Positions 5,865-35,919 of a DNA stretch of 45,974 nt are shown here, in pieces. How positions within the stretch are numbered: the stretch's first letter is position 1; each line of letters starts with the position of its first letter. This DNA comes from Elusimicrobiota bacterium. Lineage in GTDB: Bacteria; Elusimicrobiota; Elusimicrobia; Elusimicrobiales; UBA9959. The DNA is taken from positions 1 to 45,974 of the forward strand of contig DAIENX010000022.1 in NCBI GenBank assembly GCA_027340875.1, written 5' to 3'. The notes below the pieces were generated by a model. That model was not told the origin of the DNA and made no database searches. It worked only from the letters and a program-made list of their open reading frames with translations. The translations under genes were made by a program, and so were the position numbers.

Positions 5865-5907
5865 GTTTTCTCCTCGACAGAATGCTCCGGTGCAAATCAA
5901 ATACCAC

Positions 5908-6489: not shown

Positions 6490-6506
6490 AACTTTACACC
6501 TTCGCA

Positions 6507-7403: not shown

Positions 7404-7411
7404 AGCCTCAC

Positions 7412-7990: not shown

Positions 7991-8057
7991 ATTAACCCCT
8001 GATAGGCGCCACGCCGCAAATGTTATGGCCGATATCACGGAGGGCCGCCTATCCGCT

Positions 8058-8086
8058 AGTATAGAGGACGGCGGCAAGCATGACAA
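8058..8086 (-). promoter_or_regulatory. Sigma70-type promoter of the CTD-PorV-Spy-fibre operon
   Basis: TTGTCA (8086-8081), 17-nt spacer, TATACT (8063-8058). A perfect palindrome CACGCATGCGTG (8088-8099) sits directly upstream. Confidence 0.65.
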
Positions 8087-10319: not shown

Positions 10320-11270
10320 TCACTTGAGCGTACGGCGGAAATAGTCCACCGTCTTCCCCAGGCCCTCTTCCAGTTTTATCTTCGGCGTCCAGCCCAGTTT
10401 TTCTTTCGCCAGCGTTATGTCCGGCTGGCGCTGTTTCGGATCGTCCTGAGGAAGAGGCTTGTAGATCAGTTTGCTCTTGCTCTCCGGGATCAGCTGCAGC
10501 ACCTTCTCGGCCAGCTGCTTTATCGTGAATTCGTCGGGATTGCCGATGTTCACCGGGCCGGAAAAATCCGCCGGGCTCTCCATCATCGCCGTTATCCCGT
10601 TCACGAGGTCGTCGACGTACTGGAAGCTGCGGGTCTGGGAGCCGTCGCCGTAGATGGTGATGTTCTTGTTCTGCAGCGCCTGCACTATGAAGTTGCTGAC
10701 GACTCGCCCGTCGTTGGGATGCATATTGGGCCCGTAGGTATTGAAGATCCTCACCACCTTGATGTCCAGCTTATGCTGGCGGTGGTAGTCGAAGAAAAGG
10801 GTCTCGGCGCAGCGCTTGCCCTCGTCGTAGCAGGCCCGCGGGCCTATAGTGTTCACGCGGCCCCAGTAACTCTCCGGCTGCGGGTGCACCTCGGGGTCGC
10901 CGTACACCTCGCTGGTCGAGGCCTGCAGGATGCGCGCCTTCGTGCGGCGCGCGAGGCCCAGCATGTTTATCGTGCCGTTCACCGAGGTCTTGGTGGTGTG
11001 CACCGGGTTGAACTGGTAATGCACCGGAGAAGCGGGGCAGGCGAGGTTGTAGATCCTGTCCACCTCGAGCACGAGCGGAGAGCAGATGTCGTGGCGGATG
11101 AACTCGAAGCGCTTGTCGCCGAAGAGGTCGAGGACGTTCTCCTTGCTGCCGGTGAACAGGCTGTCCACGCACAGCACGTCGTGGCCTTCGGAAAGCAGGC
11201 GCCGGCAGAGATGGGAGCCTATGAACCCCGCGCCGCCGGTGACCAGTATCTTGAGTTTATGAGACATCAT
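10320..11270 (-). CDS. uxs: UDP-glucuronate decarboxylase (UDP-xylose synthase)
   Basis: [66 protein letters not shown]. Start taken at MMSHKLK. Confidence 0.93.
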
Positions 11271-11320: not shown

Positions 11321-12181
11321 TCAATCAACCGTGGCGCGGCCGGCGGGGCCGGCCTGAGCCGACTCTTCGGCGGCCTTGCGGCCCTTGCCGCCGGGAGTCC
11401 AGCCTATGACCAGGCGCAGGCCGAGATAATCTATCGCCCGCTCTCTCCCGTTGCTGAAGGAGCGTTCCCAATCACAGCGTAACCGGTACCCGCGCGGCAG
11501 ATAGTCCAGTCCGGCCGAGAGCCCGAATACAGCGAAAGGGCGCACCCAGCCTTCCCGGCGGTTGCTCCAGTAAACCCCGCCCTTATAGGATTCCCTGTAG
11601 CCTGTAGACAGTCCGGCACGGCCCGACGGGGTAAGGAGGAAATTACCGAGCTTAAGGTGCGCGGCAGCGCCAGCCCGCACCCCGGCCAGGAAATTGTAGA
11701 ACCGCCCCTCCTCCTTGTTGTTATGGTCGATGGAAAAATTGCCGTAAGAGACGGGGAAGGATACATGCAGAGACCAGCTCGGCACGCCCGGCACTCCGAA
11801 CAGGTAATGTCTGGCCGGTGCAGCGTGGATAGTATTGCCTACCACATGTCGCTTCACCCCGGCCAGCCGTATCTCACCGCGCCCGGGGGATCCCACAAGC
11901 GAAGTCCCCAGCGTACCCCCGTCATAAGTACCAGTAGACGTTCTTTTGGCTAAGGAAAGGCTGATATCCAGGCCGTTCACCTCGGTCCTGTCCCCGTCGC
12001 CGGCCAGCCAGGCCCCGCTGATATCCCATGTGGTGTCCTTCGCATAATCCACGGCCGGGGCAGGCTCGGTCAGCAGGTTGTACTGCTAGGCGCACAGCGG
12101 CGCAACGGAGAACAGAAGAAGTGCCGGCAGGATACGCAGAAGCATAAGAGCGGTAAAAAATGCGCGTTGAAGGGTTCGCAT
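11321..12181 (-). pseudogene. Putative outer-membrane beta-strand protein interrupted by an in-frame TAG right after its signal peptide
   Basis: The frame from ATG 12181 (or ATG 12145) reads MRTLQRAFFTALMLLRILPALLLFSVAPLCA*QYNLLTEPAPAVDYAK... TAG is at 12088-12086 and the same frame continues to 11321 with alternating hydrophobic/aromatic strands. Confidence 0.65.
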
Positions 12182-12191
12182 GCATGTTAAC

Positions 12192-12200
12192 TGCTATAAT
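12192..12200 (+). promoter_or_regulatory. Consensus extended -10 promoter (TGcTATAAT) for the ligase gene; probably a leaderless transcript
   Basis: Perfect TGnTATAAT 9 nt before the in-frame GTG at 12210, with no SD sequence in between. Confidence 0.6.
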
Positions 12201-12209
12201 TCTAGCATT

Positions 12210-13415
12210 GTGACAGCACGGAAAATCAGCGCGGACACTCTCCTTTCGGCCTTTCTCTGCCTGTTCGCGGCGGCGGCCCTGTTCTCCGTTACGGCGGTGG
12301 AAACTGCGCTATTCCTGAACCTCATGACCCTGCTGGTCATCCGCTACAGGGAAGGCTCTATAAAAGAGGCCCTCTCTTTTCTCGGGTGCCACCCGCTCTT
12401 CATCCCGTGGGCGCTCTACCTGGGGGTCTGCCTGCTTACGGCCATTACCGCCTATTACCCCGGCAAGGCCTTCGGGCAGCTCAACTCCGATTTCCTGAAA
12501 TACGTCTGCCTCTCTACGCTGCTGCTGGCGGTCAGGAAGGACCATCTCCCCCGCCTGTCGGCCTTCTACGCCGCGGCCGCCGGGGTCTCCGCCGTCTTCG
12601 GCATGTACGAGGCGCTGGGCTCGCTGGCCGCCGGGAACGGGCTCGCCCGCGCGGGAGTGCTGATGAACGCGGTGCGCTACGGCGAGGCAATGTCCATAGC
12701 GCTGCTGCTGCAGCTCAGTCTGCTGTTACAGGGCGGAGAGGCCCCGGCCGGGCGCCGCTTTCCCCTCCGCCTTTCCGCCGTCCTCACCTTCGCGGCGGTG
12801 CTGCTGACACAGACCCGGGGCGCCTACCTGGGGTTGTTCGTCGGCATGCTCTGCATCTTCACTTTCTCTCCGGCCTCCAGGAAGAGGCTGGCTCTTGCCG
12901 GCGGGGTTATGCTGCTGGCTGTCGTGCTGCTGGCCGCCTTCAGTCCAGGCGTCCGGAACAGGGTAGATGCTTCAGTGGCCTTCAAGCGCGGCGACTTCGC
13001 CGCGAATTCAGCCAGCACCGGCATCAATATCCGTTTGGAGCTATGGAAGGTCGGCTACAAGATGTTCAAGGCCCACCCCGTGGTCGGGGTCGGACCTGAC
13101 AATATCAAGAGGCTGTTCAAGAAGTTCCACCCAGAGCCCTTCCCGGAGGACGGCGTCTACGGCACGCTTAACAACATCTACGTCCACCAGGCGGCGGAAC
13201 GCGGCACGCTGGGACTGGCGGCGTTGCTGTTCCTGTTCTGGGCCATGCTGAACTTCGCGCTCCGGCGGTTCCGCGCGACGTCCAGTCCCTACGCCCTCTG
13301 GGCGCTGTGCGCGCTGCCAGCCTTCTACGTGATGAACCTTACGGAGATCTCCTTCCAGCACGTGCACACGTCGTTCGCTATCTTCCTCGCGCTGGCCTTC
13401 GCGGCGGCGGCGTAA
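12210..13415 (+). CDS. O-antigen ligase / O-oligosaccharyltransferase-like (WaaL, Wzy_C domain) membrane protein
   Basis: About 11-12 hydrophobic segments, LLTQTRGAYLG, and periplasmic loop IRLELWKVGYKMFKAHPVVGVGPDN...LNNIYVHQAAERGTLG. Start may be GTG 12210 or ATG 12180. Confidence 0.85.
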   Translation: MTARKISADTLLSAFLCLFAAAALFSVTAVETALFLNLMTLLVIRYREGSIKEALSFLGCHPLFIPWALYLGVCLLTAITAYYPGKAFGQLNSDFLKYVCLSTLLLAVRKDHLPRLSAFYAAAAGVSAVFGMYEALGSLAAGNGLARAGVLMNAVRYGEAMSIALLLQLSLLLQGGEAPAGRRFPLRLSAVLTFAAVLLTQTRGAYLGLFVGMLCIFTFSPASRKRLALAGGVMLLAVVLLAAFSPGVRNRVDASVAFKRGDFAANSASTGINIRLELWKVGYKMFKAHPVVGVGPDNIKRLFKKFHPEPFPEDGVYGTLNNIYVHQAAERGTLGLAALLFLFWAMLNFALRRFRATSSPYALWALCALPAFYVMNLTEISFQHVHTSFAIFLALAFAAAA

Positions 13416-13436: not shown

Positions 13437-14840
13437 TCAGGAAGTAATGGCCGTCTTGCCGGCCATAGCGGCGTCCTTCTGGAAAACCCTGCGGAAAGTC
13501 CTTAAGATTATGCCCAGGTCCAGTGCCAGCGACATGTTCTTGACGTAGTACAGGTCGTAATGGAGCTTCTCCAGCGACTCGGCCTGGCTCGAAGTGGCGT
13601 GGTAATTTATCTGCGCCCAGCCGGTGACGCCGGGCTTTATCAGGTGGCGCAGGTGGTAATGCGGCACGGTGCGCTCCAGTATGCGGACCTCGCTGGTCCA
13701 CTCAGGCCTCGGCCCGACCAGCGACATGTCCCCCTTCAGCACGTTCCAGAGCTGAGGGATCTCGTCGAGCCTGCTCGAACGCAGGAACTTGCCCAAAGGC
13801 GTGATCCTCTCGTCGTCCTTGCCGGCCTTGTACAGCGGCCCGGCCTTGCTGGCGCCCACCACCATCGTGCGGAACTTCCAGATTATGAATCTTCGCCCGA
13901 GGTGGCCGACGCGCTTCTGCACGAAGAACACGGGCGCGCCGATCCCTCCCTCCAGCTTTATGGCCGCCCAGACCGCCAGCGTCAGCGGCAGGGTCAGCAG
14001 CAGACCCGCCGCCGCGAAGGCCACGTCCAGGACCCGCTTCAGGACCGAATAGAACCGGTTCTCCTGATGCAGCACGTTGCTCAGCAGCCAGCTGGGCTTG
14101 GCGGCGTGTTCGGGAGGTATCTTGCCGTAGAGGTCCTCGTAAAAATCCAGGTGCGTGATGATAGGGACCTGCTCCATCACGGCGGTGGAGAGCAGCACTC
14201 CGCCAACCATGGGCCTGTTCTCGGCGTCCTCCGCGTCCACCACCAGCACGTCTATCCTGGGGGCCATGTGCACGCAGCCCCGGCCGTTGGGACGCCAGTA
14301 GCCTTCGGCGGTCTCGGCCGCGCCCAGGTCGGGCAGCGGCACGACGGTGAAGCCAAGGTAAGGATTCAGCGGCAGGTCCCGTTTTATCTCCTCGATAAGG
14401 GTGTTAGTGCCGAGAAAGGCGACCTTCTGCAGCAGGAGCTTGCCCAGCACCACGCGCGTCCAAACGCGCCGCCAGAGCGTGGCGAAGAGGTGCAGGAAGA
14501 AGAGGGTAAGGAACAGGTGCGTCTTCGGGGTAAGTCCCAGCTGCAGGTAGAACGCGTAGAACATCGCGCTGACCGCGGCCAGGTTCACCACGAAAGAAAG
14601 GAGACAGATGTTTATCAGGTTTACCAGCCTGTTGATGCGGCGCAGATCGTAGAAACCGACCACGTAGAAGACCGCCGTCCAGACCGGCACGAATATGGAG
14701 AATACGCGCACGTGCTCCAGGAAGAAATCCCATGGCACCGCGCTGAAACGGCGGGCCACCAGCGCCAGCCCCAGCGCCGCGTAGAACAGCGCGAGGTCGC
14801 CCAGGAAAAGCAGCAGCCGGCGCCACCTGAAGATCAGCAT
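13437..14840 (-). CDS. Initiating polyprenyl-phosphate phosphoglycosyltransferase (WcaJ/WbaP-type, Bac_transf)
   Basis: N-terminal TM helices; KRVLDV, FFVQKRVG, KFRTM, DERITPLGKFLRSSRLDEIPQLWNVLKGDMSLVGPRPE, PGVTGWAQI, DLYYVKN. Confidence 0.93.
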   Translation of the reverse strand: MLIFRWRRLLLFLGDLALFYAALGLALVARRFSAVPWDFFLEHVRVFSIFVPVWTAVFYVVGFYDLRRINRLVNLINICLLSFVVNLAAVSAMFYAFYLQLGLTPKTHLFLTLFFLHLFATLWRRVWTRVVLGKLLLQKVAFLGTNTLIEEIKRDLPLNPYLGFTVVPLPDLGAAETAEGYWRPNGRGCVHMAPRIDVLVVDAEDAENRPMVGGVLLSTAVMEQVPIITHLDFYEDLYGKIPPEHAAKPSWLLSNVLHQENRFYSVLKRVLDVAFAAAGLLLTLPLTLAVWAAIKLEGGIGAPVFFVQKRVGHLGRRFIIWKFRTMVVGASKAGPLYKAGKDDERITPLGKFLRSSRLDEIPQLWNVLKGDMSLVGPRPEWTSEVRILERTVPHYHLRHLIKPGVTGWAQINYHATSSQAESLEKLHYDLYYVKNMSLALDLGIILRTFRRVFQKDAAMAGKTAITS

Positions 14841-14861: not shown

Positions 14862-16061
14862 TTATAGTCTATTTGCCGCGGCGACATGTGCCCGTATTCC
14901 GGCTATGACCCTCGCCCGGTCGTATTCTCCGGCGAGCAGCCTGCCGGCGCTGCCGGAGAAACTCCCCAGCTCTTCCGCGCTCAGGGAGCGGAACTTGAGG
15001 AAGCCGTCACGTATGGCTTCCGGGCTGTCGGGGTCGGCGCCGAGGCCGAGGCCGTGCTTCTCCACCAGGCCCTTCACTTCCCCGTTCATCACGGCGAACA
15101 CCGGCTTCCGAAAGGCCAGATAGGCCTGGAATTTGGCCGGCACCACCAGGTTAAGGCCGGGAGTATTGGCAAGGGAGACTATCATAACGTCGCTGGCCCT
15201 GAAAAAGGCCGGCATCTCCGAGTTCTTGTGTCTGCCCCAGAACTTCACGCCGGGGATCCCTTCCGTCGCCACGATCCCCTTGAGCGTCTCCAGGTGCGAG
15301 CCGTCGCCGACGATGCTCAGCCTCAGGTCCGGCCGCTCCTTCGCCGCCATCGCGAAACCGCGCAGGACGTTCTCCAGGTTCTGGAACTTGCCAACGTTCC
15401 CCGCGAAGGTGAAGTTGAAGCCCTCCGGCAGTTCCGCCTTCCCAGCGCCCCCGTCGTCCGCCACCGTGGGCCAGTTGGGAAAATGCGCTATCTTCCTTCC
15501 GGGGACGTATCCCAGGATGCGCCCGGCGAAGCCCTCGCAGGAGACCAGTATCTCCGAACAGCCGGAATAGACGAAGCGTATGACGGCGCCCAGGAACCAC
15601 TCCAGCAGGCGGGTCTTCCTGAAGCCGTAAGAATAGACCATGTCCGGCCAGATGTCCTGCGTCCAGATCGTCACCGGAATACCATACAGCCTGCCCGCTA
15701 TCACAGCAGGTATGGCCAGCGTCAGCGGGCCGGTCTGGTAGACGAAGATGCGGTCATGCCCGCGCGCCTTGAAAAGCGCGGCTGCGGTGCCGGCCAGGAC
15801 GAAACTGAGATAATTGAGCAGCTTAAGGACGAGGGAATCGCGATAGCCGGTGACGGTGAAGAAGCGGAAGATCCTCATCCCCTTCCATTTCTCCGACGAG
15901 AATGGCCTGTTGGAGTACCCGTCAAAGAGCCGCCCGAAAGGATAACTCGGAGCCTGGGTCAGCACGTCCACCGTCATCCCCCCGGCGGCCCACTCGGCCG
16001 CCAGGTCGTTCACGATGAACTCCTCCGGGTAGAACCTCTCGGTTACTATGAGCGTCTTCAT
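14862..16061 (-). CDS. GT4 glycosyltransferase, WbuB/Cap5L-like (L-FucNAc/L-QuiNAc transferase type)
   Basis: TERFYPEEF, PSYP.G, LLNYLSF, WTQDIWP, FAGNVGKFQNL, VGDGS, PAKFQAY; adjacent to the fnl/qnl genes. Confidence 0.85.
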   Translation of the reverse strand: MKTLIVTERFYPEEFIVNDLAAEWAAGGMTVDVLTQAPSYPFGRLFDGYSNRPFSSEKWKGMRIFRFFTVTGYRDSLVLKLLNYLSFVLAGTAAALFKARGHDRIFVYQTGPLTLAIPAVIAGRLYGIPVTIWTQDIWPDMVYSYGFRKTRLLEWFLGAVIRFVYSGCSEILVSCEGFAGRILGYVPGRKIAHFPNWPTVADDGGAGKAELPEGFNFTFAGNVGKFQNLENVLRGFAMAAKERPDLRLSIVGDGSHLETLKGIVATEGIPGVKFWGRHKNSEMPAFFRASDVMIVSLANTPGLNLVVPAKFQAYLAFRKPVFAVMNGEVKGLVEKHGLGLGADPDSPEAIRDGFLKFRSLSAEELGSFSGSAGRLLAGEYDRARVIAGIRAHVAAANRL

Positions 16062-16082
16062 GTCCGCCCGGGGCCCGCCCGC

Positions 16083-17216
16083 TCAGAGGGATTTCCGCCA
16101 GACAATGCGGTTGATGTAGTCGGTGTAGCTCTCAATGATGCGCAGCACTTTCTTCGAGACGTTGTCGACGTCGTAGTCCCCCACGAGGCGGAACCGCCTG
16201 TCGGCCTTGCTATGCTGGGCGGTCACTATCTCCACCGACTCCAGCACACGCTCGGTCTTCAGGCCGCACATGATCAGCGTGCCTTCGTCCATCCCCTCCG
16301 GGCGCTCGTGCGCCTGGCGTATCGTGACGGCGGGGACGTTGAGTATGGTGGACTCCTCGGTTATCGTGCCGCTGTCGGAGACCACGCAGAAGGCATTGAG
16401 CTGCAGCTTCACGTAGTCGTAGAAGCCGAGCGGCTTCAGAAAAGCTATGCGCTTGTCCAGGCCCTTCACGCCCAGTTCCTCCAGCTTCTTGCGGGTGCGC
16501 GGGTGCGTGGATACTATGACGGGCATGCCGTACTTCTTCGCCAGCGCATTGAGCGAGTCCAGCAGGCTGCGGAAGTTCTCCAGGCTGTCCACGTTCTCCT
16601 CGCGGTGCGTGCTGACCACGAAATAGGCGCCGTCCTTCAGCTTCAGGCGCTTGAGCACGTCGGACTTAAGGATCTTCGGCATGTAGAACGCCAGAACCTC
16701 CTTCATCGGGGAGCCGGTCTTGATCACCGTCTCCGGGCGCAGGCCTTCGGCCAGCAGGTAGCGGCGGGCGTGCTCGGTCAGCGTCATGTTGATGTCGCTT
16801 AGGTGGTCCACCACCTTGCGGTTGAGTTCCTCGGGGACGCGCTGGTCGAAGGAGCGGTTGCCGGCCTCCATGTGGAACACCGGTATCTTGCGACGTTTGG
16901 CGGGCATCACGGAGAGGCAGCTGTTGGTGTCGCCGTAGAGCAGTATGGCGTCAGGTTCCTCCTTCTCCATCACAGCATCGGCCTTGGCGATGATGTTCCC
17001 GATGGTCTCGGCGAGCGTCTTACCGGCGGAATCCAGGAAATAGTCCGGCTTGCGGATGCCCAGCTCCTTGAAGAAGATCTCGTTGAGCTCGTAGTCGTAG
17101 TTCTGGCCTGTGTGCACTATAACGTGCTTCAGGTGCTTCTCGGCCTCGTGCATCACCCGGCTCAGCTTGATTATCTCGGGGCGGGTCCCGACGATGGTCA
17201 TCAGTTTAAGGGGCAT
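16083..17216 (-). CDS. Non-hydrolysing UDP-HexNAc 2-epimerase (FnlC/QnlB/WbjD type)
   Basis: IVGTRPEIIKL, HTGQNYDYEL, YGDTNS, HMEAGNRSFDQRVPEELNR, HREENVD, SDSGTITEE, ERPEG. Confidence 0.93.
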   Translation of the reverse strand: MPLKLMTIVGTRPEIIKLSRVMHEAEKHLKHVIVHTGQNYDYELNEIFFKELGIRKPDYFLDSAGKTLAETIGNIIAKADAVMEKEEPDAILLYGDTNSCLSVMPAKRRKIPVFHMEAGNRSFDQRVPEELNRKVVDHLSDINMTLTEHARRYLLAEGLRPETVIKTGSPMKEVLAFYMPKILKSDVLKRLKLKDGAYFVVSTHREENVDSLENFRSLLDSLNALAKKYGMPVIVSTHPRTRKKLEELGVKGLDKRIAFLKPLGFYDYVKLQLNAFCVVSDSGTITEESTILNVPAVTIRQAHERPEGMDEGTLIMCGLKTERVLESVEIVTAQHSKADRRFRLVGDYDVDNVSKKVLRIIESYTDYINRIVWRKSL

Positions 17217-17229
17217 AGGTTCTCCAGGT

Positions 17230-18243
17230 CTATTTCAGCTCCGCCTTCACTTCGGGGAGCTTCAGCAGCATCTCCTTCACCTGCTTTACGCTCAGGCGCT
17301 CGGTGTTGTGCGAAGTATAGTCCTCGAGCAGCGCCTCTTTCCTGTCGCCTTCGGTGAAATACTTGTTGTAGTTCAGGTCGCGGCTGTCCATCGTGATCCT
17401 GAAATAGTCGCCCATGTCCTCGGCGCGGCGTATCTCCTCGGCGTTCAGCAGCGTCTCGAAGATCTTCTCGCCGTGGCGGATGCCGATCGTCTTCACGGGC
17501 ACTTCTGACTTGAACAGCTCCTTCAGCGCCTGCGCCAGGTCCCCCACCGTGCAGGCCGGGGCCTTCTTTATGAAGATGTCCCCCTGCCTGGCGTGGTCGA
17601 AGGCGAACAGCACCAGCTTTATGGCCTCAGGCAGCGGCAGCAGGAAGCGCGTCATGCCCTGGTCCGTGACGGTTATCGGCTTGCGCTCCTTTATCTGTTT
17701 GATAAAGAGCGGTATCACGGAACCGCGCGAGCACATCACGTTGCCGTAACGGACGCAGGAGACGGTTGTATCCTTCGCGTCCAGGCCGCGGCAGGCCGCC
17801 AGCGCGACTTTCTCCATCAGGGCCTTCGTCATGCCCATTGCGTTCACCGGATAGACGGCCTTGTCGGTGCCCAGGCAGACCACGCTCTCGACACCGTTGG
17901 CTATCGCGGACTCAACGACGTTATGGCTGCCGACGATGTTCGTCATCACCGCCTGCATCGGGAAGAACTCGCAGGAGGGCACCTGCTTGAGCGCGGCGGC
18001 GTGGAAGACCAGGTCCACGCCCTTCATCGCCTGGTCCACGCTGTCGCGGTCGCGCACGTCGCCGATGTGGAACTTGACCTTCGGGTTGTCCAGCTTTATG
18101 CGCATGTGTTCCTGCTTCAGCTCGTCGCGACTGAAGATGCGCACCTCCCGGAAATCCTTGTCCAGTATGGTATCCAGCAGCTCGTGGCCGAAGGAGCCGG
18201 TGCCGCCGGTTATCAGAAGGGTCTTATTCTTAAGGTTTGGCAT
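17230..18243 (-). CDS. fnlA: UDP-GlcNAc 4,6-dehydratase/5-epimerase (FnlA/CapE/WbjB)
   Basis: ITGGTGSFG, FSRDELKQ, HAAALKQVPSCEFFP, TDKAVYPVNAMGMTKALME, RYGNVMCSRGSVIP, GIRHGEK, YTSHNT. Confidence 0.92.
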   Translation of the reverse strand: MPNLKNKTLLITGGTGSFGHELLDTILDKDFREVRIFSRDELKQEHMRIKLDNPKVKFHIGDVRDRDSVDQAMKGVDLVFHAAALKQVPSCEFFPMQAVMTNIVGSHNVVESAIANGVESVVCLGTDKAVYPVNAMGMTKALMEKVALAACRGLDAKDTTVSCVRYGNVMCSRGSVIPLFIKQIKERKPITVTDQGMTRFLLPLPEAIKLVLFAFDHARQGDIFIKKAPACTVGDLAQALKELFKSEVPVKTIGIRHGEKIFETLLNAEEIRRAEDMGDYFRITMDSRDLNYNKYFTEGDRKEALLEDYTSHNTERLSVKQVKEMLLKLPEVKAELK

Positions 18244-18244
18244 T

Positions 18245-19144
18245 TCATCCTCGCTTGCGCCAGCTTCCGTAGGGCGTCGGGTCGGACGCCATCTCGGTCA
18301 TCAGCTGTTTCCACGTCGGGCAGACGAATCCGGCGGCGGATGCGAAGCGATCGCCGTTCAGGTCGCGACGCATCTCGAAGCCTTCCTCGGGCTCTATCTC
18401 CACGTCCAGCTTATAGGCTTCTCTCATCATAAGCAGCAGGTCGTACTTCGAAACGATCTCGCTCGATACATGGTAAAGGCCGTTGAGCAGCGGATGCTTC
18501 TCTATCAGGTCCCCCACAAGGGCGGCCAGCCTGTTGGTGGTCAGGCCCGTGAACAGGGCCCTGCGAAATCCCTTTATCTTATTCCCCTTCTGTGCCAGGA
18601 ACCACTCCAGGAGCTCCGTGCCCGCGAAGATCTCGCGGCCTATGAAGGAGGAACGCAGCGTCAGCGCGAAAGGGGCGTTCACGTCCCCGAGCGCCTTGGT
18701 AATGCCGTAGAGGTCGCGGGCGTCCGGGGGGTCCTCCTCCGTGTAGCCGCCCTTTTTGCCGTCGTAGACGCAAACGGTGCTGAAATGTATCAGGCGAGAG
18801 CCGCTGCGGGAGCACCACTCGGCCAGCCGGTGCGGCAGCAGCGCGTTTATAGAGATGGCGGAGTTCCTGTCCAGCGCTTCTTTGCTGCGCAGCGTCACTC
18901 CCGCGCAGTTCACTATGACGGAAGGTCTCAGCTCATCCAGCATCTTCCCCACAGCGGAGAAGTCGCGGAGGTCCAGGCCGTCTATCACGTTCGGAACGTC
19001 AAAAAGTCCTGTCTTCGCGTAAAAATCACGTTTCTTCCGCATGGAAACGAACGTGTGAGGAAAGCGCGCAGGCAGGACCTGCCAGAGCTTGTGCCCCAGC
19101 GTTCCCGCGCCGCCGAGTATCAGTATGCGTGGTGTTAAAGACAT
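18245..19144 (-). CDS. RmlD-like SDR 4-reductase (QnlA/WbvR type) for UDP-6-deoxy-L-HexNAc synthesis
   Basis: ILGGAGTLG, VNCAG, INALLPH, HFSTVCVYDG, DLYGITKALG, LRSSFIG, LLEWF. Directly upstream of fnlA. Confidence 0.8.
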   Translation of the reverse strand: MSLTPRILILGGAGTLGHKLWQVLPARFPHTFVSMRKKRDFYAKTGLFDVPNVIDGLDLRDFSAVGKMLDELRPSVIVNCAGVTLRSKEALDRNSAISINALLPHRLAEWCSRSGSRLIHFSTVCVYDGKKGGYTEEDPPDARDLYGITKALGDVNAPFALTLRSSFIGREIFAGTELLEWFLAQKGNKIKGFRRALFTGLTTNRLAALVGDLIEKHPLLNGLYHVSSEIVSKYDLLLMMREAYKLDVEIEPEEGFEMRRDLNGDRFASAAGFVCPTWKQLMTEMASDPTPYGSWRKRG

Positions 19145-19188
19145 CACAAGACCATAAAAGCATCCGGCCCAGCGGCCGCACTAATGTA

Positions 19189-19197
19189 ATAATAACA
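19189..19197 (-). promoter_or_regulatory. Possible internal extended -10 promoter (TGtTATTAT) for the reductase-fnlA sub-operon
   Basis: AT-rich gap 19148-19222 containing TGTTATTAT on the minus strand. Confidence 0.35.
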
Positions 19198-19222
19198 AAA
19201 TCTTAACGGCCGGAACACTCAA

Positions 19223-20977
19223 TTACTTCCCCCGGGTCCCGCTTGTGAACGTCGGGGCGTTCCCCACAGGGACGGAATTCCCGGAAGAGTTGTAATCATA
19301 TCCCCAGTAAGCGTAGACCCCGGTACCGGAAATTCTGCGTACGCAGGCTGTAGTTCTCTTAGGGCAGGACTTCTCCACGGAATAGGTGTACGGGAGCGCG
19401 CTCCAAGCCCGGCGCTGCAAATATCCGCCATGTATCAAAATGCAGATGGACGAACCGTTCAGATCACAAGTTTCGGTATTGGTCGCGTCGGATAAAGTAC
19501 CGTAGAGCCGTTTATGGTGCGTTGCCTTGTATTTCAAGTAGGCCTCGTTAACGATCTCACCCTGATAGAACGCGTCGCGCGCCAGCGCCTTCTCCACTGC
19601 CTTGAAGTAGTACGGAAAGGCCACCGAGGTCAGGAAACCCAGAACGACCGCTACGGCCAGGAACCGGACAAGTGCAAAGGGACCTTGAGGTCCGGCTACG
19701 GCCGAACCGGCGGGAAAGCCGGATCTTTCCCCCTCCCCTTCCCCCTGTGAAGCCGCGGCTGACAGGCTCTTATACAACTTATCCCACTCGTCTCCCACCA
19801 CGGCCAGGGAATACTTCGTACGCATCAATTCATGGGCAGCGAGCCCAATGGTTTCCCGCAAGGCCGGTTCGAGGAGCAGGCGTTCGAGCGCTTCGGCGAC
19901 CTGACGCGACCCATTGCAGACCAGACAATGCTTCCCGTTCTCCACCGCGATCCCGCCGAAAGCCACGCTGGTACCGACTACCGTCTTTCCAAGCGCCAGC
20001 GCGTCAAGGACCCGCGTCTTGATGCCTGTGCCGGACTTGTCCAGGGAAAGCAGAATGTCCGCCTCCTCGAGGAATTTGTGATAATCCTCGACCCATTTGA
20101 AGTACTTCAATCTGGGAAATCCCCTGATCCTCTGTTCGTCCGCCGCGGAAGCTCTGGGACCCAGCACATGGAATTCAAAAGTCGGCGCCCTGGCAATGAG
20201 ACCCGGATAGTCATGCTCAAGGAACTCGAAAAGGCCGTTGGCAATGCCCGGGATATCCAGATTGCCTGTAAAGACCACCCTGACCGGCCCGCCTTTTTTC
20301 ACTACGCACGGAGTTGCTACGTCCGAGGAACCTATCTCCGCTCCAAGCGGAATGACTTCGATCCGGAGGCCGGGAGAAATCCTTTTCAGGTAAGCGGCAT
20401 CTTCGCGCGAAACTACATGGACCCTATCGAACAGCGGATAGACGTTCTTCTCGAATCGGACTATCCTGGACATCGAGAGCCTCAGATACGAACGCCGCAG
20501 AAAGCCGGAGCTTTCCGTTATCATACCCTGATAGAATCTCGAGATGGCGTCGTTGGAGGAGAGCACGGACGGCACGCGGGGCCCCCACGGCAGATATTGC
20601 GCCATGTTGATCACGTCATAATGCGCCGCTTTGTATTTCCCGGTTTTCGCCGCCTCCCGGAGGACCTGGCGGAACCGCTCTGAATTATAGGTACCAAGGG
20701 AAGGCGGCAGTCCTCTAAGCAGGCTGAGAAGACGCCGCAGAACGCCGGCCGCGCCGCATACGGGAGGAACAACGGCCAGAACCCTGACCCCGGGAAGCGC
20801 CGCTTCGAAAGCGGGGATACGCGCCTCGGCATCCGTCCCGCCGAAACACAGGACATCGCAACGCCAGCCCCGGACCGCCAGGGAAGAAAGCAGGCTATAA
20901 ACCTTGCGGTTTATGCCGTTAGAAGGCGGATAGGGGAAATCCTGCAGCAGAAAGAGTATCTTCTTGTCCTGTGTCAT
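19223..20977 (-). CDS. GT4 glycosyltransferase with a C-terminal type IV pilin-like domain (fusion)
   Basis: aa ~1-410 is a GT4 (FPYPPSNG, VVSREDA, FTGNL, GTGIKTRVLDALALGKTVVGT). After a linker, aa 434-584 begins FALVRFLAVAVVLGFLTSVAFPYYFKAVEKALARDA (pilin alpha-1 helix), followed by a 4-Cys globular domain. Confidence 0.8.
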   Translation of the reverse strand: MTQDKKILFLLQDFPYPPSNGINRKVYSLLSSLAVRGWRCDVLCFGGTDAEARIPAFEAALPGVRVLAVVPPVCGAAGVLRRLLSLLRGLPPSLGTYNSERFRQVLREAAKTGKYKAAHYDVINMAQYLPWGPRVPSVLSSNDAISRFYQGMITESSGFLRRSYLRLSMSRIVRFEKNVYPLFDRVHVVSREDAAYLKRISPGLRIEVIPLGAEIGSSDVATPCVVKKGGPVRVVFTGNLDIPGIANGLFEFLEHDYPGLIARAPTFEFHVLGPRASAADEQRIRGFPRLKYFKWVEDYHKFLEEADILLSLDKSGTGIKTRVLDALALGKTVVGTSVAFGGIAVENGKHCLVCNGSRQVAEALERLLLEPALRETIGLAAHELMRTKYSLAVVGDEWDKLYKSLSAAASQGEGEGERSGFPAGSAVAGPQGPFALVRFLAVAVVLGFLTSVAFPYYFKAVEKALARDAFYQGEIVNEAYLKYKATHHKRLYGTLSDATNTETCDLNGSSICILIHGGYLQRRAWSALPYTYSVEKSCPKRTTACVRRISGTGVYAYWGYDYNSSGNSVPVGNAPTFTSGTRGK

Positions 20978-22416
20978 GGTCCGGTTTCCGTTCTGCGGCT
21001 AAGATTCAAAGCGAACAGCTCCAGCAAAAGGAACACGATCGCGCAAACGAACAGTTGCTTGAAGAGAGTCGGGGATACTCCCTCGGTAAGCGCCCAGAAC
21101 ATCAACAACAGGAAAAAGGTACGCACTATAGGAACGACGGGAGAGCTGGCTGCGGCCAACCGGTCCCATATGAAAACAGCGGAAACCCCGGCCGCCACTC
21201 CGGCCAGGAATATTCCCGGATACCCCCAAGCCATATACCACTGGGCTATGAACGGAGTGGCAAAACCGTTCGGAGCGTCGAAAGGCAAACCGAACGCGAA
21301 ATGGCCCAGATACCAGGAATAACCCTTTTCAGAGAACAGCACGGGGAACGCCGCGCTTCCGAGCGCTTTAACCTTAAAACCCGAGACGATCACGGAGATC
21401 TCTATTCCGGGAATGCGGAAAAAGATAAAACTGAAGGCCTTGAGGAAATCTCCGATACCAGGAGAAAATGCGAAGAGCGCGGACTTCAACGCCGGGAAAG
21501 GATCGTAACCGGAAAGCCTTAAGACCCTGTAACTCCAGATAAGCGGCGACAGGACTATAGCCAGGAGAGCGATACTGCCTCCCGCTGCCGCCTCCAGCTT
21601 CCGTATCCTTATCCCCCCGCTGACCGCCAGGAACAGGAGAAGCAGCGGGACCAGCATCAGACTGGCCCTGCTGCTCCTTAAGATAACGTCGGCCACAGCC
21701 CAGAACAACAGCAGACCCATTCCCGCCCTGGCCCACAGATATTTCCGGGAGGCCTCGCTGAAACATATGAAGCAGACTATCAATATCGGCAAAAGCATCG
21801 TATGGAGGAAGAAGATCGCCCCCGCCAGGTGGAACGGCAACGGAGCCGAAACCGTTCCCATCAATCCGATCTTGAACCGATAGATCAGGAACACCGAAAC
21901 CATGAGCAGGCCCGCGAGGCCCGCGAAATAACGCCACGGAGCGGATACCGGCAGCCTGGAGCTGGCGCGCGGCGACTCTCCGGAGCCCTCATCTCCCTGT
22001 CCGTAGAAGAACACCGCGAGGCAGAACCCCGAGAACCCGAGAGTCTGCATCAAAAACGCGTCCAAGAGCGTAGCAGGGATCTCAAAGTGGCGCCAGGACC
22101 ACCATTCCGGGAAAAACGGCTTCACCGGAGCGGGGTCCAGGACTAACCAATAGAACTTCGCGTAACCGAAGACCAGCAATATCGCGAAGGCCAGCCAGGC
22201 TGCCACGGGACTCCTCTTCCTGCGGCTTAAAGAACTTACGGCCAGATAAGCGGCTCCGGCGGCGGCGACGGTCAGGAACAGATATTCCGGCCATCTCCCC
22301 TGGAAAGGGCGGAAGGACAGGAGATATCCGGAAACAAAGAACAGAAGGGTACCGTATCCTGCCGCCGCGCCGAGGCGGGTACGGCCATCGCGACTGTTAA
22401 TATCCGGGCGTTTCAT
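20974..22416 (-). CDS. Multi-TM protein, probable Wzy polysaccharide polymerase
   Basis: About 11-12 TM segments, ILRSSRASL, FIFFRIPG and YMAWGYPG motifs, and position among the GTs next to wzx. Confidence 0.65.
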   Translation of the reverse strand: MKRPDINSRDGRTRLGAAAGYGTLLFFVSGYLLSFRPFQGRWPEYLFLTVAAAGAAYLAVSSLSRRKRSPVAAWLAFAILLVFGYAKFYWLVLDPAPVKPFFPEWWSWRHFEIPATLLDAFLMQTLGFSGFCLAVFFYGQGDEGSGESPRASSRLPVSAPWRYFAGLAGLLMVSVFLIYRFKIGLMGTVSAPLPFHLAGAIFFLHTMLLPILIVCFICFSEASRKYLWARAGMGLLLFWAVADVILRSSRASLMLVPLLLLFLAVSGGIRIRKLEAAAGGSIALLAIVLSPLIWSYRVLRLSGYDPFPALKSALFAFSPGIGDFLKAFSFIFFRIPGIEISVIVSGFKVKALGSAAFPVLFSEKGYSWYLGHFAFGLPFDAPNGFATPFIAQWYMAWGYPGIFLAGVAAGVSAVFIWDRLAAASSPVVPIVRTFFLLLMFWALTEGVSPTLFKQLFVCAIVFLLLELFALNLSRRTETGP

Positions 22417-23448: not shown

Positions 23449-24936
23449 TCATAGGTCCTCTCCCGGCCCGGGCAGGCCCGCTTCGTGGCCCCTGCCGGCC
23501 CCCAAGGCCAGATCACTGCCGTGGATCCCGGCCGCACGATACTGCAGCCACACGAAGTATGCCCCCGCCGCGGAGAGTGCCAGCGTGGCGCGAACGAACC
23601 CTCCCCCGTGGAAAAAGGCCAGCGGGAGGAACGCCAGGGACAAGAGCGCATAGCGCACAAAAACGGCGGCGTCCAGCGCAAGTCCGGACATACGCGCGAC
23701 AACCCGCCACATGATCACCAGCGTCAGGAGCCCGCTGGCCAGAAGGGCCAGCGGGATGCAGATCGACGGAGCCGGCGACAGCGCCGCGAAATAAACTCCG
23801 GCTAGCGCGGCTATTCCTCCGAAAAAGTACGGTTTGATCAGAACGTCGGTGCGCATCTCCGAATGGGCCGCGGAAGCCAGAATATTGGTGGTCATGCGGA
23901 AAAATTCTATGAACGCGCCGTACCTGGAGTATACGAACACCGCGCGGAACTTTTCCGACACCAGGACCCTGACCAGGTATTCCGACGTACCAAGAAGAAA
24001 AAAGAGATAGATCAGGTAGACGGGGATCGCTTTGGAGACCAGCTTCCCTAGGGCCGCGGCACGGGCGGCCCTATCCCCGCCGGTTATGGCGCGGTAAAAC
24101 CCCGGCAGATAGATCTGCTGTACCAGCGACTCGAGGATCCCGGCGACGCTCGTGGCGATGCTGAAGCCTACGGCCAGGTAGCCCAGGAACTCCGCCCCGT
24201 TCAGTTTCTCCACCAAGACCCTGTAGGATTGCGCCTGTGACCACATAAAGAAGGCTGCGCCTGACAAAGGGATGGCGAATCTGGCGGCCGGCAAAAGGGC
24301 GGACTTGCTGGTATACCGCGAAATCCTCGCCGCGGAAATGCCCGGCTCCGGGATCAGTTTCAGGAACGCTAAAACTCCGATACAGGTTACCGCCCCTATG
24401 GCCGCCACCTGTCCCCACATCCACATCCCGGCCGAAGCGGCACCGATCCTGACGAAGAGCGCGGAACAGAGCAAAGCCGCGAAGGATGTCGCCAGCGTCA
24501 GGGAGACGAAAGCGCCTTTGCGCCCCAGGGTGTTCAGAACAGGGAGAAAGGCCTGATTCAGGTTCAGGACAGACGTGTAACAAGCGGTGATAGAGGCAAA
24601 AGCTATCCCGGGCAGCTCCGCGCCGACCCCCAGAAAGCTCCACGCCGCCAGGACTACAGGGAAGGCGAGCGCTGAGATGGCCAGCACGTACCCGCTATAT
24701 CCCAGCATATGCTCAAAAACGGTCTTCGCATCATGCCAGAGGAACAAGTTCCGGTTAAGGTACATAAGGACCGGATTCAGGAGGAACATCCCGAAAAGGG
24801 TAGCCGCGGAGATCATAAGGTAAACGCCGCCGACGTCAGCCGGAGAAAGCAAAGTGGTAAGGACCCTGAAAAGGGCTATTGTAAGCAGGGCCTGGACACC
24901 ACGGCCTGCGACAAGAAGAATTACCTCGTTCTTCAA
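23449..24936 (-). CDS. wzx: Wzx-type (MATE/MOP) oligosaccharide flippase
   Basis: About 12-14 TM segments, LTTLLSPADVG, FAIPL, LGYLAVGFSIA and LVSEKF pattern; TTG start. Confidence 0.75.
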   Translation of the reverse strand: MKNEVILLVAGRGVQALLTIALFRVLTTLLSPADVGGVYLMISAATLFGMFLLNPVLMYLNRNLFLWHDAKTVFEHMLGYSGYVLAISALAFPVVLAAWSFLGVGAELPGIAFASITACYTSVLNLNQAFLPVLNTLGRKGAFVSLTLATSFAALLCSALFVRIGAASAGMWMWGQVAAIGAVTCIGVLAFLKLIPEPGISAARISRYTSKSALLPAARFAIPLSGAAFFMWSQAQSYRVLVEKLNGAEFLGYLAVGFSIATSVAGILESLVQQIYLPGFYRAITGGDRAARAAALGKLVSKAIPVYLIYLFFLLGTSEYLVRVLVSEKFRAVFVYSRYGAFIEFFRMTTNILASAAHSEMRTDVLIKPYFFGGIAALAGVYFAALSPAPSICIPLALLASGLLTLVIMWRVVARMSGLALDAAVFVRYALLSLAFLPLAFFHGGGFVRATLALSAAGAYFVWLQYRAAGIHGSDLALGAGRGHEAGLPGPGEDL

Positions 24937-27135: not shown

Positions 27136-28076
27136 CTTCCGCCGCCCCCGGAAAGCCACTCGAAAGTCTTCCTTATCCCCGCTTCCAGCGGAGTAGGGAC
27201 GAATCCAGTAAGCGCCTTGAGGCGGCTGACGTTCAGCACCACTCGCGGCACGTCGAACTTGCGCCCGGGTCGGCGCTCCACCCTGAGCTCGCCGGCCACT
27301 TTCCGCAGCATGCGCAGCACCTCGTTGACGGAATGCCCCCTCCCGGAGCCCACGTTCACTATTTCCCCGGAGACGGCGGCATCCATCAGCCTCTTCACGG
27401 CCCGTACGCAGTCCTTCACGTAAATGTAATCGCGCACCACGCGCCCGTCGCCCCAGATGCGGACGGGCCTGCCCTCGGCCATGTTCCTCAGCGCCACGTT
27501 TATCAGGCCCTGCACCCGGGAGGAATGATGCTCCCCGTACGGGTTGGATATCCTCAGAATAAGGTACTCCAGGCCGTGCAGGTACGAACTCAACTGTATG
27601 TACTTTTCTATCGCCAGCTTCACGGTCCCGTGGGAGCAGATGGGATTGGTGGCGCAGCTCTCTGAGACGGCCGCGCGTCCACCGGCGCCGGGACCGTACA
27701 CGGTGCCGCCGGAAGAAGCGAAAATTATCCTGCGAGCCTTGTACTTTTCCATCAGGCACAGCAGGCGCACCGTGGGCACCAGGTTGGTTTCGATGTCGTA
27801 CACCATGGCGAAGCCGTCGGACGAAGCCGGGACCGTAGTAGAGACCAGATGGACCACGGTATCTATCCGGTGCCTCCGGAAAATGCCCTCCAGGGAGGAC
27901 CGCGAATCGAAGTTCCCGGGCACGTAGACCGCGCTCCCTATCTTCGCGGCGGCCTTGATCGCCTCCGGCCTGTCAAAAACGACCACGGAATAGCGGCGGT
28001 CTTTGGCGAATTCCTCCAGCAGGTTGCGGCCGATAAAACCGCAGCCGCCGATCACGAGAATTTTTTTCTTTTTCAT
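27132..28076 (-). CDS. Extended SDR NAD-dependent epimerase/reductase
   Basis: VIGGCGFIG, HLVSTTVP, ASSGGTVYG, SHGTVK (YxxxK Tyr appears replaced by His), RISNPYG, WGDG..VRDYIYV, NVGSG. Start ATG 28076. Confidence 0.85.
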   Translation of the reverse strand: MKKKKILVIGGCGFIGRNLLEEFAKDRRYSVVVFDRPEAIKAAAKIGSAVYVPGNFDSRSSLEGIFRRHRIDTVVHLVSTTVPASSDGFAMVYDIETNLVPTVRLLCLMEKYKARRIIFASSGGTVYGPGAGGRAAVSESCATNPICSHGTVKLAIEKYIQLSSYLHGLEYLILRISNPYGEHHSSRVQGLINVALRNMAEGRPVRIWGDGRVVRDYIYVKDCVRAVKRLMDAAVSGEIVNVGSGRGHSVNEVLRMLRKVAGELRVERRPGRKFDVPRVVLNVSRLKALTGFVPTPLEAGIRKTFEWLSGGGGR

Positions 28077-28942
28077 CAGAGTTTCACCCAGGTCCCCGGC
28101 ACGGCGTCGTCGTTGGCGAAACCGGCCGCCGGGGCCACGACTATCTTTCCCGGGGAGTCGGAAAGCCACGCTCCCCACCAGCTGAAAGTGCTGTTAGCGG
28201 TGATAAAGTGCGAACAGCGCCCCATCAACCAGAGGTCGGCGCAGGCGGCGTCGCCGGCGCGGTTATGCGAGACCACCGTAAGCCGGTCCCCGGGGAGGCC
28301 GATACGGGACCTCGCCTCTTCCGGCATGTCGGAAAAGAGGAAATAATGGGGCCGCCCGGCCTTAGCATCCATGTAGTCCACCGCCCGCCTGTAGTAATCC
28401 GCCGGCGCGTCGCTGGCCCCGGCCGAGCCGGTCGCCTCGAAAAGGCGGACGTGCAGCGCCACCGACGCCCGGGACCGGATTTCGGCCTCCACCCGCAGGT
28501 TGGCGGCGTCCGCAGGCGGACTCATACGCAGGTCTTCCCGTATCTCCCGCTCCCGGTCCTTGAAATAATTCTCGGAATGCCAGTAGCCGTCCAGATAAAC
28601 GGTGTCCTTGACCTTCAGCGCCAGCAGCCTGGGGTCGAATTCCAGTCCTTCCTGCTCCAGGTACGCGCGGGCGCCGAAAGGGCGCCGCCGCGAAAGCCAT
28701 TTCGCCAGGCCGCGCCTCAGCCGCTCGAACGGCTCCATCCTCTCCGGCGGCGTGGCCTTGCGCGCGCCGATATTAAAATGGTCCAGCATGTATTTCCGGC
28801 GGTATCTGGCGTCGCGGACGAAACCGGTGACGTCGTCTATCACCAGCTCCGCCCCGTTCGCCAGCGCGAGACGCCGCGCCGCCGCGTAACAGAAAAGCTG
28901 GTTCCCCAGCCCGCCTTTTATCCTGATTATGACCTTCCCCAT
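28076..28942 (-). CDS. GT11 (alpha-1,2-fucosyltransferase-family) glycosyltransferase
   Basis: IKGGLGNQLFCYA, DGYWHSENYF, HVR, FSDMP, HFITANSTFSWWGAWL. Confidence 0.88.
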   Translation of the reverse strand: MGKVIIRIKGGLGNQLFCYAAARRLALANGAELVIDDVTGFVRDARYRRKYMLDHFNIGARKATPPERMEPFERLRRGLAKWLSRRRPFGARAYLEQEGLEFDPRLLALKVKDTVYLDGYWHSENYFKDREREIREDLRMSPPADAANLRVEAEIRSRASVALHVRLFEATGSAGASDAPADYYRRAVDYMDAKAGRPHYFLFSDMPEEARSRIGLPGDRLTVVSHNRAGDAACADLWLMGRCSHFITANSTFSWWGAWLSDSPGKIVVAPAAGFANDDAVPGTWVKL

Positions 28943-28947
28943 CGGAT

Positions 28948-29847
28948 TCAATCCGCGCCGGCCAGCTTTTTAAAAAAACCCATGAGACCTTTTTTATTCT
29001 CCGGCGGCAGGACCAGGTGCGAGAATTCCCGCAGGTTCCTGACCAGGTAGTCCGGATAAGTGCCGTCTATCTCCACCCGCTTGAACTTCGAAGAACGTCC
29101 GAAGATATCCTTTTTCCCGGAGATCTTCCTGCCCAGGCGGGAAAGTATCTTCTCGTTGTTGAATTCCTGGTGCGCGGCCGACCTTATCTTATGCGCCACG
29201 CGGGCGGCGATATCCTCGTCTTTGCTGCCGCCCATGTAGGTGAAATGCCAGCCGCCGTCGTTCACCCTGACGCTCCGTTCCGGGGTCTTATCGACGCGCA
29301 GTTCGGGCAGCGGGAACAGGTCGAGCAGCCCCAGCCTGAACAGATAAGTTCCCAGCCACTGTTTTTTCTTAACTCCGTCAAAATCCCCGGCGTAGGAGAG
29401 CAGCTTTCCCGAGACTTCCTCCAGGTTAAGATAGAAGTAGAACTGTCGCTGCGCGAACTGGTATATCTTTTCCGGATCGAAAGCCGCCAGGATCTCCCGT
29501 ACCTTCTCCGGGTTCGGGATCTCGTCGAGATCGCTGTACATAATGACGTCGTCCTTGGAGCAGCCCGCAAGGCCGCGCGAGCGGGCGTTCTTCTGGAACA
29601 CGTCCCTGTCGAACGGCGAGACGCCGGGGCCGTCCGGAGTATCCGCTACTATCACATGGGTGATCTTATCGCGGAACTCTTCGAACATCTCCTTGTTCTC
29701 GTCGTAATACAGCGGCTTCGCCTGGCCGGAAAAAGTCACCGTCGATTCCACGATGACGAACCTGTCCACCACCGGGGCAAGAACGTTAAGCCTGAGCTTC
29801 AGCAGGTCCAGCTCGTTGAAGAATTGAAAGCAGTCGTAGACCCTCAT
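28948..29847 (-). CDS. GT17 (MGAT3/GnT-III-like) glycosyltransferase
   Basis: VYDCFQFFNELDLLKLRL, FVIVESTVTFSGQAKPL, SDLDEIP, GGWHFTY, KIRSAAHQE. Confidence 0.85.
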   Translation of the reverse strand: MRVYDCFQFFNELDLLKLRLNVLAPVVDRFVIVESTVTFSGQAKPLYYDENKEMFEEFRDKITHVIVADTPDGPGVSPFDRDVFQKNARSRGLAGCSKDDVIMYSDLDEIPNPEKVREILAAFDPEKIYQFAQRQFYFYLNLEEVSGKLLSYAGDFDGVKKKQWLGTYLFRLGLLDLFPLPELRVDKTPERSVRVNDGGWHFTYMGGSKDEDIAARVAHKIRSAAHQEFNNEKILSRLGRKISGKKDIFGRSSKFKRVEIDGTYPDYLVRNLREFSHLVLPPENKKGLMGFFKKLAGAD

Positions 29848-30560: not shown

Positions 30561-30587
30561 ATCTCCCCTCTTGGATCGAGCGTCTTT

Positions 30588-31427: not shown

Positions 31428-31430
31428 AAG

Positions 31431-35912: not shown

Positions 35913-35919
35913 GCAGCCG

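Follow-up and report, generated by a model that had tools for sequence, protein, structure and literature searches.

Analysis of a 45,974-nucleotide contig of an Elusimicrobiota bacterium (hereinafter, the window) revealed a 584-aa open reading frame on the minus strand (positions 19223..20977) in which a complete GT4 glycosyltransferase continues, through a short linker, into a homolog of type IV pilins whose processing signal is non-canonical. The interpretation that we favor, at a probability of about one half, is that an ordinary glycosyltransferase of a Wzx/Wzy pathway is tethered to the membrane by a membrane-retained pilin mimic, that the two parts work independently of each other, and that the fusion arose locally through a slip in a run of five G residues. 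The fusion is apparently private to one population and arose from known components through a simple event; as such, it provides a snapshot of a two-compartment membrane protein born from neighboring genes, through what is likely a one-base event that is still readable. The free-standing relatives of the pilin part, P0043 and P0150, are more intriguing than the fusion itself and represent a lead worth following.

Organization of the fused gene

The N-terminal part of the protein (aa 1-405; 19763..20977, minus strand) matches four Pfam models of GT4 glycosyltransferases above their cut-offs (PF13692, PF13524, PF13579 and PF13439, all within aa 20-392), contains both GT-B domains and is full-length compared with its orthologs. 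The best NCBIfam match is TIGR03087, far below its cut-off, and no NCBIfam model scores above cut-off. The 28-aa linker that follows (aa 406-433; 19679..19762, minus strand) was delineated from the three-frame translation and from its GC content at the three codon positions (0.79/0.75/0.54 vs 0.62/0.44/0.68 for the glycosyltransferase), and probably combines the former glycosyltransferase tail, a spacer and a pilin leader. As already noticed in the initial annotation, which was made from the letters and a list of reading frames, the pilin part has no separate start: between aa 406 and 439, there is no in-frame ATG, GTG, TTG, CTG or ATN codon. No promoter-like site was found within 19000-20100.

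The pilin-like tail (aa 434-584) opens with the hydrophobic alpha-1N helix (aa 434-457; 19607..19678, minus strand; delimited by hydropathy and the model helix), which is predicted to be an uncleaved membrane anchor, and continues with a head that consists of alpha-1C, the alpha-beta loop and four strands (19226..19606, minus strand; assigned from the AlphaFold model and structural matches). The head is about 125 aa long after the hydrophobic stretch, not the roughly 100 aa estimated at first, and retains 4 of the 8 Cys residues of the family. The strongest 19-residue hydropathy window of the fused protein (aa 436-454, score 2.29) is missing from P0001, the closest glycosyltransferase relative; it lies in the only strong hydrophobic segment of the protein, as proposed in the initial annotation, and this segment corresponds to the stretch of about 21 hydrophobic residues that characterizes alpha-1N of pilins. 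The predicted topology comprises a cytoplasmic GT4 domain, one uncleaved inner-membrane helix and a periplasmic pilin head.

In each of four sequencing runs, a single contig spans the whole ORF unchanged, with no other letters and no gaps, at a word depth of 7-12; the four runs are mine-drainage metagenomes from one study, possibly the source of the window itself, and so are not independent confirmation, and contigs drop rare variants. This agreement excludes a private assembly error, and the single 584-aa frame is thus confirmed as real. Three of these runs (X2-X4) also carry a second contig, about 93% identical over positions 18046-18184 in the dehydratase gene, which derives from a relative that co-occurs in these samples. 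The named homologs suggest that the organism of the window belongs to the Elusimicrobiales.

The tail is a full pilin homolog with a disabled signal

The Pfam scan yielded no match of its own for the tail. Direct comparison, in contrast, showed 31% identity over 145 aa, end to end, with the canonical pilin encoded on contig C33 of the same genome (tblastn E-value 5e-21), and pilin-like matches at E ≤ 1e-5 were detected in 70 of the 79 other genomes of the family. All 31 distinct pilin sequences of the family that were compared, namely those from the fetched loci and from the genome itself out of 93 family matches, carry the canonical motif. The tail is a divergent member of this set, with a mean identity to the family of 32%, compared with 46-60% to the others for the 30 C33-type pilins; PF07963 (N_methyl motif) matches 77 of the 79 aligned members, and the unmatched ones are the tail and P0043.

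The AlphaFold model of the tail (pLDDT 93-94), for which canonical pilins made up the alignment, consists of a long helix (residues 8-61) and four head strands. The top nine structural matches of the modeled head are all type IV pilins (Z 5.8-6.9); the best of them, 6xxd, superimposes with an rmsd of 2.8 over 86 residues at Z 6.9; values of Z under 8 count as modest. With either model, Foldseek returned no hit at E ≤ 0.001 (best hit, FimA, 3sok, E 0.09), and nothing clear with the head alone. Taken with the homology, the modeled fold supports the view that the tail is a full pilin homolog with the type IV pilin fold.

Like the canonical pilins of the family, the tail is colinear with them over the whole mature protein, combines a long helix with a four-strand head, and retains the aromatic core and the two landmarks Gly14 (Gly447) and Pro22 (Pro455), counted from Phe+1 at aa 434 (first base 19678). 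Unlike them, it has Pro at position -1 (Pro433) and Arg at +5 (Arg438) in place of Gly-1 and Glu5, lacks 4 of the 8 Cys (those left are Cys504, 512, 538 and 545) and is encoded outside the pilus operon. Pro-1, Arg+5, Gly14, Pro22 and the presence of four Cys agree with the reading in the initial annotation. The signal, furthermore, lies 433 residues inside the protein instead of behind a short N-terminal leader, and the 7 residues preceding Phe+1 include no Lys or Arg, a situation found in 1 of 86 canonical leaders. Gly-1 is reported to be required for prepilin processing and Glu5 for pilus assembly (PMC4471445, 10.1101/459388). By this rule, the tail, as well as P0043 and P0150, should be neither cleaved by the prepilin peptidase nor polymerized, and the block in processing that was suggested for the tail in the initial annotation fits the Gly-1 requirement (PMC4471445).

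Free-standing non-cleavable pilins

In a search of 1.84 billion representative sequences, the closest relative of the tail is P0043, a protein of 160 aa (54% identity, E 3.5e-46), and the next best hit is at E 3e-16. A profile search, with 2 matches among 837 candidates, added P0150, also of 160 aa, so that the identity of the tail to the two proteins is 51-54%. Neither protein is fused: each has an initiator Met of its own, placed seven residues ahead of Phe+1, a leader that contains Lys/Arg, Arg at -1 and Lys at +5; the C-terminal Cys pair is missing from both, as it is from the tail. Among the 87 motif-bearing relatives (a count that leaves out seven sequences missed by the pattern and all sequences above 210 aa), P0043 and P0150 are the only ones without Gly or Ala at -1 and Glu at +5; the other 85 have Gly (83) or Ala (2) at -1 and, without exception, Glu at +5.

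In the phylogenetic tree, the tail, P0043 and P0150 form a single clade with support 1.0 and a long stem. Given that the two free-standing proteins already have Arg-1 and Lys+5, comparison of the sequences indicates that the signal was lost before the fusion took place, and we abandon the idea of the initial annotation that the cleavage site was lost through domestication by the glycosyltransferase.

Across 401 genomes of the phylum, P0043 found at best 38% identity outside the genome of the window (G000); searches for loci of the clade gave 2 short, chance-like matches in metagenomes and just 1 canonical Elusimicrobium pilin in genome contigs, and viral contigs, 50,697 phages and 72,556 plasmids yielded no match. 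A word-based homolog search with the tail retrieved none among 535 candidates from a collection that contains P0043, which is a false negative, so absences in the word-based search are weak. Fusions of the tail to other partners were covered by the representative search, in which clusters could hide some. A 90% cluster that placed the 584-aa protein together with unrelated peptides of 49 and 54 aa was discarded as a clustering artefact.

A variable slot behind the glycosyltransferase gene

We found no other protein with the architecture proposed by the initial annotation to be sought, a GT4 domain followed by a pilin: the maximum query coverage of 42 GT4 homologs (321-1022 aa) is 73%, and none of the 42 extends over the tail. 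Thirty-three homologs are 34-65% identical, comprising 32 proteins of 401-435 aa and one GT4-GT2 fusion. The latter, P0026 (755 aa), is a member of the same GT4 subfamily with a C-terminal GT2 domain, which shows that this GT4 tolerates C-terminal fusions. Close orthologs are present in 4 of the 79 family genomes, and all were found without a tail. The glycosyltransferase thus resembles those of Wzx/Wzy clusters in having a complete domain, 54-65% identity to its orthologs and the same gene order (flippase, polymerase-like protein, GT4, reductase, dehydratase, epimerase) in the congeneric or confamilial genomes G024, G030 and G089, but these orthologs end at 401-435 aa and have no transmembrane segment.

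The slot behind the GT4 gene is empty in G024. In G089, it is occupied by genes for an AbiEii nucleotidyltransferase and an AbiEi-like partner (L059:8435-9818), and in G030 by a gene for a 468-aa membrane protein without a Pfam match (L060:8920-10326). In a further genome, G002, an fcl-like gene comes next after the GT4. Given that the slot is empty or holds unrelated cargo in the relatives, the pilin is one of several passengers at this site. The AbiEii/AbiEi-type pair indicates that the slot can carry defense-type cargo, and the 468-aa protein is possibly a second polymerase. The downstream edge of the slot is marked, before the gene for an RmlD-like reductase, by an AT-rich motif, a GC hairpin (19165-19178) and a T-run (together 19155..19199, minus strand). 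A similar element (L058, about 13600-13710; L059, about 9815-9880; L060, about 10350-10420) delimits the slot in each of the four syntenic loci (the window, G024, G030 and G089), whatever the cargo upstream, and it might represent a promoter plus attenuator.

Origin of the fusion

The sister of the glycosyltransferase in the tree is P0001 (423 aa, 65% identity, support 0.98). In Logan, P0001 and P0043 each occur on a single contig, which in both cases is 5106 bases long; from this shared length, we infer that the two genes are probably adjacent on one contig, unfused. Alignment of the 18-residue tail of P0001 with the linker DNA matches 28 of 54 bases when read straight and 35 of 54 when one base is skipped at 19741-19746, a score that 13 of 1000 shuffled tails reach; on residues alone, the frameshift test is not significant (39 of 300 shuffles). 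The skipped base falls in a run of five G (19741..19745, minus strand), within the slippage-prone G-runs (about 19729-19745) to which the initial annotation had drawn attention. In the shifted frame of the three-frame translation, a TAG codon (19696..19698, minus strand) would terminate the glycosyltransferase at about 426 aa, compared with 423 aa in P0001. The one-indel match together with this stop codon makes the gain of one base in the G run the likeliest event, with moderate support. At the position where P0043 and P0150 have their initiator Met, the fused ORF has GTA, and all 7 leader residues of the tail differ from those of the two proteins; the homology of the linker to the old pilin leader is suggestive but does not reach significance (408 of 5000 shuffles).

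These observations can be combined into a tentative scenario. The GT4 would be an unremarkable enzyme of repeat-unit synthesis in a surface-polysaccharide cluster of the Wzx/Wzy type, and an ancestor would have gained, in the slot behind it, a copy of the pilus-operon pilin of the family that already lacked Gly-1 and Glu5; this copy would survive as a free gene in relatives. An extra base in the run of five G would then have led the glycosyltransferase frame past its own stop into the pilin gene, and, with its own start and charged leader gone, the pilin would be made only as the tail of the glycosyltransferase. The enzyme would keep adding its sugar to the lipid-linked repeat unit like its orthologs, the tether being harmless or mildly useful, and the tail would persist as a membrane-retained pilin mimic that is unable to polymerize and, by analogy with unprocessed pilins, may dampen pilus assembly.

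Selection and age of the fusion

Where P0043 and P0150 have the same residue, the tail retains 26 of the 30 family-conserved positions vs 47 of the 94 others (Fisher p 3e-4). The branch leading to the tail (0.53, vs 0.35-0.42 for the sisters) is long, and so is that of the glycosyltransferase (0.48 vs 0.27); GC3 is 0.69 for the tail and 0.68 for the glycosyltransferase. The tail has accumulated about twice as many changes of its own as its sisters (14 vs 7 and 13 vs 6, not significant), compared with 48 vs 29 for the glycosyltransferase. Judging from these patterns, the tail has been constrained over most of its branch without special relaxation; the constraint does not date the fusion, and all of it could predate the joining of the two genes.

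All 151 codons of the tail are open, with no stop and no net frameshift. Because 4.4% of base changes in the tail would create a stop, an unused tail would be expected to contain 3.4 stops at 0.17 neutral changes per site and 6 at 0.3, and at 0.05 it would have acquired no stop in 37% of cases. The frame having stayed open after the start was lost, all 7 leader residues changed and the leader Lys/Arg disappeared favors an older fusion in use, whereas the 37% chance at 0.05 and the loss of Cys 1, Cys 4, Asp53 and two helix residues (Ser31 and Lys32) favor a recent one. Loss of Cys in the family mostly affects Cys 1 with 3 or Cys 2 with 4, so that Cys 1 and Cys 4 belong to different pairs by that pattern; three canonical members have a Cys pattern like that of the tail. 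We rejected the possibility that the Cys residues of the tail were lost as disulfide pairs, because the family losses favor pairs 1-3 and 2-4.

The strongest alternative, which we regard as possible if rather unlikely, is a recent accident: a copy of the pilin, already decaying after the loss of its start, was attached to the glycosyltransferase by the G-run slip as a tolerated appendage without function. Such an origin would account for the restriction of the fusion to a single known population, for the uniformly tail-free GT4 homologs, for the stop codon that the shifted frame has retained at about the expected length of the enzyme, for the unpaired Cys losses and for the twofold excess of changes in the tail. 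The glycosyltransferase, however, shows the same excess, which implies that the tail is not specially relaxed, and the 151 uninterrupted codons behind a fully altered leader and the retention of the conserved sites count against decay. The initial annotation had offered an accidental fusion with a decaying pilin gene as its second option; the slip in the G-run is supported, but constraint acted on the tail during most of its divergence.

Membrane-retained pilins as potential inhibitors of pilus assembly

Pilins that escape cleavage have been described among mutants made in the laboratory or selected by phages, in which they block or repress pili. In Pseudomonas, unprocessed pilins are reported to be retained in the inner membrane, to repress pilin expression through PilS and to be capable of conferring phage resistance (PMC13170266), and in Streptococcus sanguinis unprocessed pilins are described as acting dominant-negatively (10.1101/459388). 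The genome of the window carries a prepilin peptidase, pilins and ten matches to the pilus-ATPase family, so that a target for a pilin mimic exists; in this genome, a PilS/PilR pair was not identified, and two sigma-54 activators were found. In the case of P0043 and P0150, an uncleavable pilin has its own gene, apparently maintained by selection, which makes these proteins candidate natural pilus inhibitors. Our search of the literature, covering titles and the beginnings of abstracts outside subscription journals, found neither a glycosyltransferase-pilin fusion nor a natural gene for an uncleavable pilin.

A bolder reading, which we consider doubtful, is that the tail, P0043 and P0150 are dedicated uncleavable mimics that reside in the inner membrane and throttle or jam pilus assembly, for example against pilus-binding phages, that they travel as cargo of glycan clusters, and that in the window the mimic has become hard-wired to an essential glycan glycosyltransferase. 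If so, the fusion would couple pilus suppression to O-antigen synthesis while anchoring the glycosyltransferase in the membrane. The parallel with PilS feedback lies in the altered phage susceptibility caused by a membrane-retained uncut pilin; that feedback, however, is described for a mutant state and involves no dedicated gene (PMC13170266). Similarly, P-FimU, reported as an anti-phage pilin mimic (10.1101/2024.03.29.587342), resembles pilins, has its gene away from the pilus operon and alters phage susceptibility, but it is prophage-borne and built into the pilus, whereas the tail is encoded in a glycan cluster and predicted to be unprocessable.

The glycan cluster and the case for pilin glycosylation

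The genes around the fusion form a probable Wzx/Wzy set in which the phosphotransferase and the glycosyltransferases score above cut-off, the flippase just below, and the polymerase is assigned by position only. Immediately upstream, a gene for a 480-aa membrane protein (20974..22416, minus strand) has no Pfam or NCBIfam match; its syntenic homologs are 38-59% identical, and by position it would be Wzy-like. Further upstream lies a Wzx-like flippase (23449..24936, minus strand; PF13440, E 1e-4, just below the cut-off) that is syntenic in three relatives. Downstream of the fusion, genes identified with Pfam and NCBIfam encode the RmlD-like reductase, an FnlA-like dehydratase, a 2-epimerase and a second GT4 (14862..19147, minus strand); the best NCBIfam match among them, TIGR04130, is below its cut-off, and we take these genes to be an L-FucNAc-type set corresponding to FnlB, FnlC and WbuB. 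They are followed by the initiating polyprenyl glycosylphosphotransferase (13437..14840, minus strand; TIGR03025 above cut-off) and, on the plus strand, by a 411-aa Wzy_C protein of the O-antigen ligase family (12180..13415). PF04932 is the sole family-specific model that matches this protein, and the match does not separate PglL-type protein transferases from WaaL.

The initial annotation proposed that the pilin had been domesticated and may dock glycan assembly onto the pilus machinery or the neighboring ligase, as part of a system for pilin glycosylation; in such a system, the pilin could also be the acceptor of the glycan. Apparent co-inheritance of the glycosyltransferase and the non-cleavable pilin (the sisters are congruent, and P0001 and P0043 both come from a 5106-base contig), a Wzy_C protein 6 kb away and the pilus genes elsewhere in the genome speak for this proposal, but the cluster persists in G024, where the ligase has an ortholog (58% identity) and the locus has no pilin, the cargo found in the slot of G089 and G030 is unrelated, and the glycosyltransferase, predicted to be cytoplasmic, could not reach the periplasmic head. 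TfpO and TfpM are reported to glycosylate the C-terminal Ser/Thr of a pilin (PMC9829042). The TfpO (PilO)-PilA and TfpM-pilin pairs have in common with the window a pilin-like protein near a gene of the O-antigen ligase family and glycan genes, but in those systems a processed pilin with a Ser/Thr end directly precedes its transferase (PMC9829042), whereas the tail is predicted to be unprocessed, ends in Lys (its sisters in Arg) and is encoded 6 kb from the ligase on the opposite strand.

Two further Wzy_C proteins, of 808-866 aa, are encoded on contig C97 of the same genome (9864-14904), directly before a core type IV pilus cluster, whose genes were named from the look of the neighbors and an ATPase match; these two are better candidates for pilin oligosaccharyltransferases than the 411-aa ligase. 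Together with the tail-free orthologs of the GT4, these facts make the glycosylation proposal improbable; what is left in favor of a link is the probable co-inheritance of the glycosyltransferase and the pilin copy, and on the present evidence the fusion does not reveal a new pilin-glycosylation pathway.

The fusion might also act as a phase-variable switch, with slippage in the G-run toggling between the glycosyltransferase alone and its fused form, given that the shift maps to this run and that the shifted frame gives an enzyme of normal length. Phase-variable glycosyltransferases typically need long homopolymer tracts, which occur at mixed lengths, but the run comprises five G only, the genome contains 3295 runs of exactly that length, and the contigs of the four runs, which drop rare variants, show no indel, so that we consider a switch very unlikely. 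A one-base sequencing or assembly error in the same homopolymer, the two genes being separate in the cell, is largely refuted: the four runs do come from one study that is possibly the source of the window, but each has a contig that spans the ORF unchanged, and even an unfused pilin would have no start codon.

Other genes of the window

Upstream of the Wzx/Wzy block, positions 28076-35936 hold a second glycan block that encodes GT11 and GT17 glycosyltransferases, a methyltransferase and an ABC exporter resembling PglK/HepA; two routes of export may thus be encoded on the contig. At the other end of the window, positions 3324-8086 encode an 858-aa exported repeat-rich protein without a family match, a 199-aa protein without an assigned family, a member of the PorV/PorQ family and a protein whose C-terminal domain weakly matches the T9SS type; G024 lacks this block between gap and the ligase gene. 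Finally, a Zeta-toxin/AAA-like gene (44104-44685) is flanked by two GDP-mannose dehydratase genes.
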